Shown piece after piece: positions 109 to 48,344 of a stretch of DNA of 64,000 bases. A model generated the notes under the pieces. It searched no databases. It was not told where the DNA came from and saw nothing but the letters and a program-made list of their open reading frames with translations. Positions within the stretch are counted from its first letter, which is position 1, and each line of letters begins with the position of its first letter. The DNA lies in the NCBI RefSeq assembly GCF_003334815.1, contig NZ_QOWO01000002.1; one strand, written 5' to 3'. The stretch comes from Escherichia coli. GTDB taxonomy: Bacteria; Pseudomonadota; Gammaproteobacteria; Enterobacterales; Enterobacteriaceae. A program made the position numbers and the translations under genes.

Positions 109-379
109 ATGCCACTATCGTAACAAACGCCATGTGCTTACCCTGGCGTCAAGGGTCAATACCTGCAAGAGTGCGTGAAGAGTGGAAAGGGGTCCGCATC
201 CGCGAGCCGCAATATACGCAGGGCTGCAAGAAGATAGAGCGAGCCGCCGTTCAGGTCAACTACTGACGAACAAATCTTTTGCGAAGGGGATTGCAAATCC
301 GACAAAAAGTGGGGTTTTTCAGACCAAAACGCGTTATGCCTGCATGAAAGCAGGAGTGAAGCGGCGTACCGCGACGCCG

Positions 380-508
380 CTATTTATCGGAAGGTTTATC
401 TTGCTGCGGTTTGTTGTTGACCATATCGCACAACATAGAGAGCAGCATTAACCGTACTTTAAAGGGAGAATGACTAAACACGCGCATACACCTCTTGAAC
501 TCATTCAT
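380..508 (-). CDS. mntS: small manganese-homeostasis protein MntS (42 aa), encoded within the rybA transcript
   Basis: Minus-strand ORF ATG(508) to TAG(380) translates MNEFKRCMRVFSHSPFKVRLMLLSMLCDMVNNKPQQDKPSDK, matching my recollection of MntS; too short for the ORF track; sits upstream of mntR as in K-12. Confidence 0.85.
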   Translation of the reverse strand: MNEFKRCMRVFSHSPFKVRLMLLSMLCDMVNNKPQQDKPSDK

Positions 509-565
509 AAGACCTCCTGACTTGCTAATCCCGTCGATCCTTGAGGGATGATTGCATTACATACA

Positions 566-585
566 GATATAGCACAGGCTATATT
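566..585. promoter_or_regulatory. putative MntR operator upstream of mntS (palindrome ATATAGC-N4-GCTATAT)
   Basis: Near-perfect inverted repeat atatagcacaggctatat at 567-584, resembling the ATAGC-N4-GCTAT core of MntR boxes; located about 60 bp upstream of the mntS start codon. Confidence 0.55.
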
Positions 586-5125: not shown

Positions 5126-5226
5126 AGCCTGATGCGCTACGCTTATCAGGCCTACGCAGTACCTGCAATATATTGAATCTGCAGGACTTTGTAGGCCGGA
5201 TAAGGCGTTAACGCCGCATCAGGCAT
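5126..5226. repeat. REP/BIME element (two inverted REP units with a central palindrome)
   Basis: gcctgatgcgctacgcttatcaggcctac and gtaggccggataaggcgttaacgccgcatcaggc are classic REP sequences; related copies occur at 47205-47302 and 48258-48344. Confidence 0.85.
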
Positions 5227-34932: not shown

Positions 34933-35469
34933 ATGCGTCGCGCTAACGATCCGCAACGGCGAGAAAAAATTATCCAGGCCACGCTGGAGGCGGTGAAACT
35001 TTACGGAATACATGCTGTTACGCACCGCAAAATTGCTACCCTTGCCGGGGTACCGTTGGGATCGATGACCTACTATTTTTCAGGAATTGATGAGTTGTTA
35101 CTGGAGGCGTTCAGCAGTTTTACTGAGATCATGTCCCGGCAATATCAGGCATTTTTTAGCGATGTTAGTGATGCTCCGGGCGCATGCCAGGCTATCACCG
35201 ATATGATCTACAGCTCACAGGTTGCAACGCCGGATAACATGGAGCTGATGTACCAGCTCTACGCGCTGGCTAGCCGAAAACCGCTATTAAAAACGGTAAT
35301 GCAAAACTGGATGCAGCGCAGTCAGCAAACGCTCGAACAATGGTTTGAACCCGGAACCGCCCGCGCGCTTGATGCGTTTATTGAGGGGATGACGCTGCAT
35401 TTTGTCACCGACCGTAAGCCGCTATCGCGCGAGGAGATTTTGAGGATGGTTGAGAGGGTTGCAGGGTAG
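34933..35469 (+). CDS. rcdA: TetR-family regulator RcdA (YbjK), 178 aa
   Basis: ATG at 34933 gives [21 protein letters not shown]; track ORF starts 10 codons upstream. Confidence 0.9.
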
Positions 35470-35488
35470 TAGATAAGTTTTAGATAAC

Positions 35489-35567
35489 AAAAAACCCATC
35501 AACCTTGAACCGAAATGGCGGGGTTGATGGGCTCCACAAAATGGGGACATCAAAGAAAAGCAGTGGC
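35489..35567 (-). ncRNA. rybB: sigma-E-dependent small RNA RybB (about 79 nt)
   Basis: Minus strand reads GCCACTGCTTTTCTTTGATGTCCCCATTTTGTGGAGCCCATCAACCCCGCCATTTCGGTTCAAGGTTGATGGGTTTTTT, matching RybB as I recall it, with its terminator hairpin and U-tail; lies between rcdA and ybjL. Confidence 0.85.
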
Positions 35568-35573
35568 ACTAAT

Positions 35574-35601
35574 TAAGACTGATGCCCTGCGGAAAAGTTC
35601 T
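35574..35601 (-). promoter_or_regulatory. sigma-E promoter of rybB
   Basis: GAACTT about -33..-28 and TCTTA about -11..-7 relative to the RybB 5' end, fitting the sigma-E consensus GGAACTT-N16-TCTGA. Confidence 0.65.
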
Positions 35602-35643
35602 GCGGTTGTGCAAAAAAATTTCATTTTCAGGGCAACTTCAGTT

Positions 35644-47204: not shown

Positions 47205-47302
<98 letters not shown>

Positions 47303-48257: not shown

Positions 48258-48344
48258 GTAGGCCGGATAAGGCGTCCCCGCCGCATCCGGCACAGGCACC
48301 GTGCTGATGTCTGATGCGACGCTGGCGCGTCTTATCAGACCTAC
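48258..48344. repeat. REP/BIME element (two inverted REP units)
   Basis: gtaggccggataaggcgtccccgccgcatccggca and gatgcgacgctggcgcgtcttatcagacctac. Confidence 0.85.

Follow-up and report, generated by a model that had tools for sequence, protein, structure and literature searches.

RybB is a small regulatory RNA (sRNA) that has been known since 2001, has been placed under sigma-E control since 2006, and now serves as a model for seed-pairing sRNAs. Its control by sigma-E was described by Johansen 2006, Papenfort 2006 and Thompson 2007, as cited in PMC6694218, and its repression of OmpA and OmpC is summarized in the same paper. In Salmonella, deletion of rybB raises sigma-E activity (PMC1804206). 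Two further enterobacterial sRNAs, MicA and MicL, likewise have sigma-E promoters, depend on Hfq for their action, and repress abundant envelope proteins (PMC1804206, PMC4102768). However, they are unrelated to RybB in sequence, lie at other loci (luxS-gshA and inside cutC, respectively), and recognize other targets through other seeds. In Vibrio cholerae, VrrA and MicV share the CRCUGCUUUU seed with RybB and repress outer membrane proteins (OMPs) under sigma-E control, and RybB can substitute for both; their RNA scaffolds nevertheless differ from that of RybB, they are not rybB homologues, and rybB itself is absent from V. cholerae (PMC6694218).

The locus analyzed here lies on the minus strand of a 64-kb stretch of Escherichia coli DNA, referred to below as the window, in the ybjK(rcdA)-ybjL intergenic region, the context given for rybB in the legend to Fig. 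1 of PMC1804206. When compared with RybB of E. coli K-12 and Salmonella (RF00110, b4417), the locus is the same in sequence (100% to K-12), coordinates, flanks, promoter, seed, and terminator, and nothing distinguishes it from the K-12 gene. Neither MicA nor MicL was detected in the window by an Rfam cmscan search.

The same search, run over the whole window with Rfam 15, placed RF00110 (RybB) at 35486-35564 (-) with 105.3 bits and an E-value of 1.3e-20, far above the gathering score of 40. The alignment covers model positions 1-79 of 79 without truncation, and the posterior probability is maximal throughout. In the curated MG1655 record (NC_000913.3), the ncRNA gene rybB (b4417, "small regulatory RNA RybB") is annotated at 887979-888057 (-), between rcdA and ybjL. 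This interval maps onto window positions 35489-35567 (-), the gene coordinates coincide in that stretch, and the annotated RybB 5' end (+1) is G35567. The covariance-model search and the comparison with reference coordinates, the two checks proposed with the initial annotation, both bear it out; it had recognized a RybB match on the minus strand of the rcdA-ybjL spacer and had correctly called it a known element. The interval noted at that stage, 35489-35605, runs from the annotated rybB 3' end to 5 nt past the -35 hexamer; its start is exactly the annotated 3' end because b4417 maps to 35489-35567 (-). The spacer, put at 175 bp, is in fact 174 bp long (35470-35643), and its minus strand reads AAATTTTTTTGCACAACCGCAGAACTTTTCCGCAGGGCATCAGTCTTAATTAGT, then GCCACTGCTTTTCTTTGATGTCCCCATTTTGTGGAGCCCATCAACCCCGCCATTTCGGTTCAAGGTTGATGGGTTTTTT, then GTTATC... 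Over 501 bp around rybB, the window shows 100% identity to E. coli K-12 MG1655 as well as to numerous other strains, and a 176-bp spacer query was present in 5419 of 5426 complete E. coli genomes.

Gene identity and boundaries, the motif, spacing and conservation of the promoter, the structure of the terminator with its covariation, and synteny were all established in the present analysis. It is virtually certain that 35489-35567 (-) is the gene for RybB and has a dedicated sigma-E promoter (35574-35601), probably joined by an A/T-rich upstream tract at 35612-35621. Every sequence-level feature that defines RybB is found here, so the locus is rybB itself and is therefore already known; it is ordinary and carries no novelty. 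Its discovery value is accordingly small, and one of its uses is that of a positive control, in that a first-stage reader, given raw sequence, recognized a real sRNA along with the promoter and terminator that belong to it. The features of the locus and of the remaining window are listed in Table 1.

Table 1 Features of the rybB locus and other elements considered (positions refer to the window unless an accession is given)
Feature	Position	Strand	Basis or remark
rybB, 79-nt sRNA RybB (GCCACUGCUUUUCUUUGAUGUCCCC...GGGUUUUUU)	35489..35567	-	Rfam RF00110 and NC_000913.3 annotation b4417
5' target-recognition (seed) domain, RNA nt 1-16, GCCACUGCUUUUCUUU	35552..35567	-	read directly from the sequence
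Rho-independent terminator, 12-bp stem, 17-nt loop, U6 (35494-35489)	35489..35533	-	fold and covariation
Sigma-E -10 element GTCTTA (-12..-7)	35574..35579	-	4/6 match to GTCAAA
Sigma-E -35 element AGAACTTTT (-34..-26)	35593..35601	-	8/9 match to consensus GGAACTTTT
Conserved A/T tract AAATTTTTTT (-54..-45)	35612..35621	-	cross-genus conservation
14-nt att core ATGGGTTTTTTGTT (minus-strand reading)	35486..35499		common to attP of P2/Fels-2-like (Felsduovirus) prophages; empty here
rcdA (ybjK), convergent with rybB	34933..35469	+	ORF and annotation
ybjL, upstream of rybB, same strand	35644..37329	-	ORF and annotation
ES036	5148-5190	-	Rfam, above gathering; ybiT-ybiU intergenic
ES036	47239-47281	+	Rfam, above gathering; rlmC-artJ intergenic
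naRNA4	48261-48341	+	Rfam 75.5 bits, above gathering; artJ-artM intergenic
att-site record	235-33260 (NZ_CP151059.1)		
att-site record	(NZ_CP027118.1)		

Published sigma-E promoters have the consensus GGAACTTTT at -35 and GTCAAA at -10 (PMC1804206), and the GAACTT ... TCTTA pair named in the initial annotation is present and agrees with it. GAACTT occupies 35600-35595 and is followed by 16 nt, by TCTTA at 35578-35574, and by 6 nt to the +1 G35567, a spacing that fits the annotated RybB 5' end. Nothing of substance speaks against the identification as rybB, although the E. coli -10 element agrees with the consensus at only four of its six positions. Motif frequency was also considered. The loose pattern GAACTT-N15-17-TCNNA occurs once in the 64-kb window against an expectation of 0.97, so by itself it proves nothing; the strict pattern GAACTTT-N14-16-GTCNNA also occurs once, against 0.08 expected. 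The built-in promoter scanner reported no sigma-70-like promoter in 35300-35800, in agreement with a sigma-E promoter.

The real support for the promoter comes from its fixed position and near-invariance across species. One genome per species was scanned for an exact match to 23 nt of the seed (RNA nt 3-25), which was found at at least 120 loci across Enterobacterales, in genera including Escherichia, Salmonella, Citrobacter, Enterobacter, Yersinia, Serratia, Xenorhabdus, Proteus, and Providencia. The promoter regions were represented by 113 distinct sequences from Enterobacterales spanning -60..+30, whose alignment is gap-free. Within this set, -33..-27 (GAACTTT) is conserved at 98-100%; G-12, T-11, C-10, A-7, and T-1 are invariant, positions -9 and -8 vary, and the spacer from -25 to -14 is almost devoid of information (0.08-0.7 bit). 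Farther upstream, 90-93% of the 113 loci have T at -48..-46; the spacing to the -35 element does not change, even in genera in which ybjL does not lie upstream. The A/T tract AAATTTTTTT is probably an UP-like promoter element rather than the tail of a ybjL terminator.

The arrangement of ybjL raises the question of whether RybB might be a fragment processed from the 3' untranslated region of the ybjL mRNA, without transcription of its own. The two genes share a strand, and in this window a mere 76 nt separate the end of ybjL from the RybB 5' end downstream, with no clear ybjL terminator in between; across Enterobacteriaceae, Yersinia, and Serratia, the distance from the end of ybjL to +1 is 67-115 nt. 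Against such processing stands the near-invariant sigma-E -35/-10 pair, which keeps a fixed distance from the 5' end at 113 loci. Synteny argues in the same direction: in Xenorhabdus, Proteus, and Providencia, the loci for which 2.7-9 kb of upstream sequence could be inspected show no ybjL homologue in it, and yet the promoter and the RNA persist. Moreover, a rybB promoter-gfp fusion in Salmonella was active and strictly sigma-E dependent, falling to background level in a delta-rpoE strain (PMC1804206). Processing from ybjL is consequently very improbable, and we retain transcription of rybB from its own sigma-E promoter.

At its other end, the RNA closes with the intrinsic terminator that had been predicted, a 12-bp stem followed by U6. 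The stem pairs RNA nt 35-46 (AGCCCAUCAACC; window 35533-35522) with nt 64-75 (GGUUGAUGGGUU; window 35504-35493). The fold has a minimum free energy (MFE) of -25 kcal/mol with a z-score of -3.13, and none of 200 shuffled sequences folded as well. Covariation was assessed in an alignment of 30 diverse rybB sequences, in which 96.7% of the cells of the terminator helix are paired and both sides change in 7 of the 12 stem pairs (e.g., G-C to A-U and U-A to C-G). The helix reaches a covariation score of 0.435, compared with 0.192 +/- 0.018 in column shuffles (0/500 reach 0.435), and controls in which the 3' arm was slid by 1-3 columns scored at most 0.061. The built-in terminator scanner found nothing in 35300-35800; this is a false negative, since the 17-nt loop exceeds the scanner limit of 8. 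The Hfq-binding domain of RybB has been placed in the 3' part that carries the terminator (PMC6694218).

This hairpin sits between two genes whose 3' ends face each other, 20 nt past the rcdA stop codon, and the locus might accordingly be viewed as nothing but an intergenic terminator shared by the convergent rcdA and ybjL, without an RNA product. Such a reading is so improbable as to be negligible. Although unstructured, the 34 nt that precede the hairpin are highly conserved across genera, which is more than a mere terminator would need, and the full-length covariance-model match includes the 5' domain. The hairpin is not a canonical rcdA terminator either, because the plus strand has no T run after it, and a discrete RybB RNA of ~80 nt has been reported since 2001 (PMC1804206). 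Equally negligible is the idea that the locus encodes a small protein rather than a functional RNA: six mechanical ORFs (23-45 aa) overlap the spacer, so that the earlier statement of "no ORF" is right only if credible ORFs are meant. One of them begins within the RNA, at 35553, but cannot be completed on the 79-nt molecule because no stop codon precedes the terminator; the 29-aa ORF with a GTG start codon begins at 35569, upstream of +1; the 1-2-nt indels seen across species in the RNA body and loop of the 30-sequence alignment would break any reading frame, and the compensatory stem substitutions point to structure rather than coding. We therefore return to rybB as a gene for a functional, independently transcribed sRNA.

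The 5' domain of this sRNA shows no divergence from the conserved RybB seed, a point on which the initial annotation could have failed. The sequence GCCACUGCUUUUCUUU is intact and contains CACUGCUUUU at RNA nt 3-12, which corresponds to the published CRCUGCUUUU seed common to RybB, MicV, and VrrA (PMC6694218). In the MFE structure, the seed is unpaired except for a weak 4-bp helix. RNA nt 1-25 are invariant in all 30 aligned diverse sequences, although for nt 3-25 this follows from the way the loci were chosen, by an exact match to that very stretch. A search of the window for complements of seed nt 1-16 (9-12 nt) returned four non-self sites, with matches of only 9-10 nt; three of these are in antisense orientation to the gene at that position, and the fourth falls within artI. 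As ~4 complementary 9-mers are estimated to occur in the window by chance, no RybB target within it is supported.

The sigma-E dependence, Hfq binding, and target repression of RybB are experimental properties taken from the literature. According to this body of work, misfolded outer-membrane proteins would trigger degradation of the anti-sigma factor RseA, and the sigma-E set free would direct RNA polymerase to the rybB promoter. At this locus, transcription would be expected to start at G35567 and to stop at the 12-bp hairpin and U6. RybB would then act in trans in an Hfq-dependent manner, its single-stranded 5' end (nt 1-16) pairing with omp mRNAs (ompC, ompA, and others), and this pairing would block their translation and accelerate their decay. 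Fewer unassembled porins would result, which may provide negative feedback on sigma-E.

The 3' end of rybB also coincides with a phage attachment site. The 14-nt segment ATGGGTTTTTTGTT, with which the rybB terminator and tail end, is the crossover core for P2/Fels-2-like (Felsduovirus) prophages. Strain 20KM2300 carries an intact 33-kb P2-like prophage between rybB and rcdA, extending from ogr to a tyrosine integrase. At its rybB-side junction, ...GGTTGATGGGTTTTTTGTT is joined to GCCTGAAATTT, and at its rcdA-side junction, ...CATAAATGGGTTTTTTGTT is joined to ATCTAAAACTT; the two junctions share exactly the core, which corresponds to window positions 35499-35486. rybB remains intact after integration because the phage supplies a copy of the core. 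Strain 26561 (H52) was set aside for att mapping, as it holds an IS1-truncated prophage remnant without the integrase end, and 20KM2300 was used instead. The integrase and attL arm show ~96% identity to Klebsiella phages 4LV2017 and KP12 and to Escherichia phage vB_EcoM-813R9. A rybB-phage junction was found in 1112 of 5426 complete E. coli genomes (~20%), consistent with the ~1,200 genomes that lose colinearity at window position 35486. The integration site has already been published, both as hotspot #29, with a Felsduovirus in rybB (PMC10121019), and as island Kpn38RybB (PMC4048246). The rybB attB core is now described base by base, which is of relevance to the mapping of prophages and defense islands.

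The bacterial arm just 3' of rybB (window 35472-35485) is polymorphic within E. coli. It reads ATCTAAAACTT in K-12-type strains, including this window, and GCCTGAAATTT in UTI89, O157:H7, and ST131 strains as well as at unoccupied sites in other genera. The latter form does not differ from the phage arm, so that phage and host agree over at least 26 nt instead of 14. ATCTAAAACTT was considered as a general E. coli attB arm and rejected in view of the polymorphism across complete E. coli genomes. Where a prophage occupies the site, as it does in ~20% of E. coli genomes, phage DNA takes the place of everything 3' of ...UUUUUUGUU. What follows rybB differs greatly from genus to genus: rcdA is shifted by 0.4-10 kb, or was not detected in the DNA retrieved. 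The site resembles att sites of the tRNA/tmRNA type, as at tRNA genes and ssrA, where the 3' end of a gene likewise serves as the crossover core and is restored by the phage copy; in contrast to these, the target here is the terminator of a regulatory sRNA rather than a tRNA, and the site is empty. The RybB terminator may serve two purposes, sRNA termination and attB core, and occupancy or the arm variant could conceivably alter RybB 3'-end formation or the frequency of integration, a possibility that we consider improbable.

Elsewhere in the window, the initial annotation had named rybB as the only ncRNA that could be supported, which proved inaccurate. NC_000913.3 annotates a second sRNA gene, rybA (b4416), at ~236-575 (-), where it overlaps the small-protein gene mntS upstream of mntR; cmscan reported no Rfam family at the gathering threshold in the rybA region. 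Rfam additionally gives three matches, one to naRNA4 and two to ES036 (42.2 and 41.6 bits), which look to us like REP/BIME-type repeats and are presumably not dedicated sRNA genes.

Annotation of rybB itself is uneven. The PGAP-annotated RefSeq records inspected have no feature over rybB (either "none" or only rcdA and ybjL), and among the inspected records only the curated NC_000913.3 annotates the gene. Annotation-based screens would miss rybB in nearly all E. coli genomes.

Identity of the whole window to MG1655 was considered and rejected: a position-by-position comparison gave 29,510 mismatches, which k-mer anchoring traced to two 1-bp deletions and 7 substitutions relative to NC_000913.3. 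All of these lie outside rybB, and the rybB block is identical. The differences indicate a K-12-like strain and not the reference itself. One of the deletions, near 38233 (GGGCAACCCG in MG1655, GGGCACCCG here), causes a frameshift at about codon 10 of grxA (glutaredoxin 1), just before the CPYC active-site codons, and splits the gene into ORFs of 28 and 71 aa (38191-38277 and 38006-38221, both on the minus strand). An identical 131-bp segment carrying this deletion occurs in only 1 of ~5,400 complete E. coli genomes (strain 52F4), and the deletion is therefore either a private mutation or an assembly error. The other deletion, at ~28212 in the gstB-dacC intergenic region, shortens the T8 run of MG1655 to T7; the T7 variant is also present in several other complete genomes and is thus an ordinary polymorphism.
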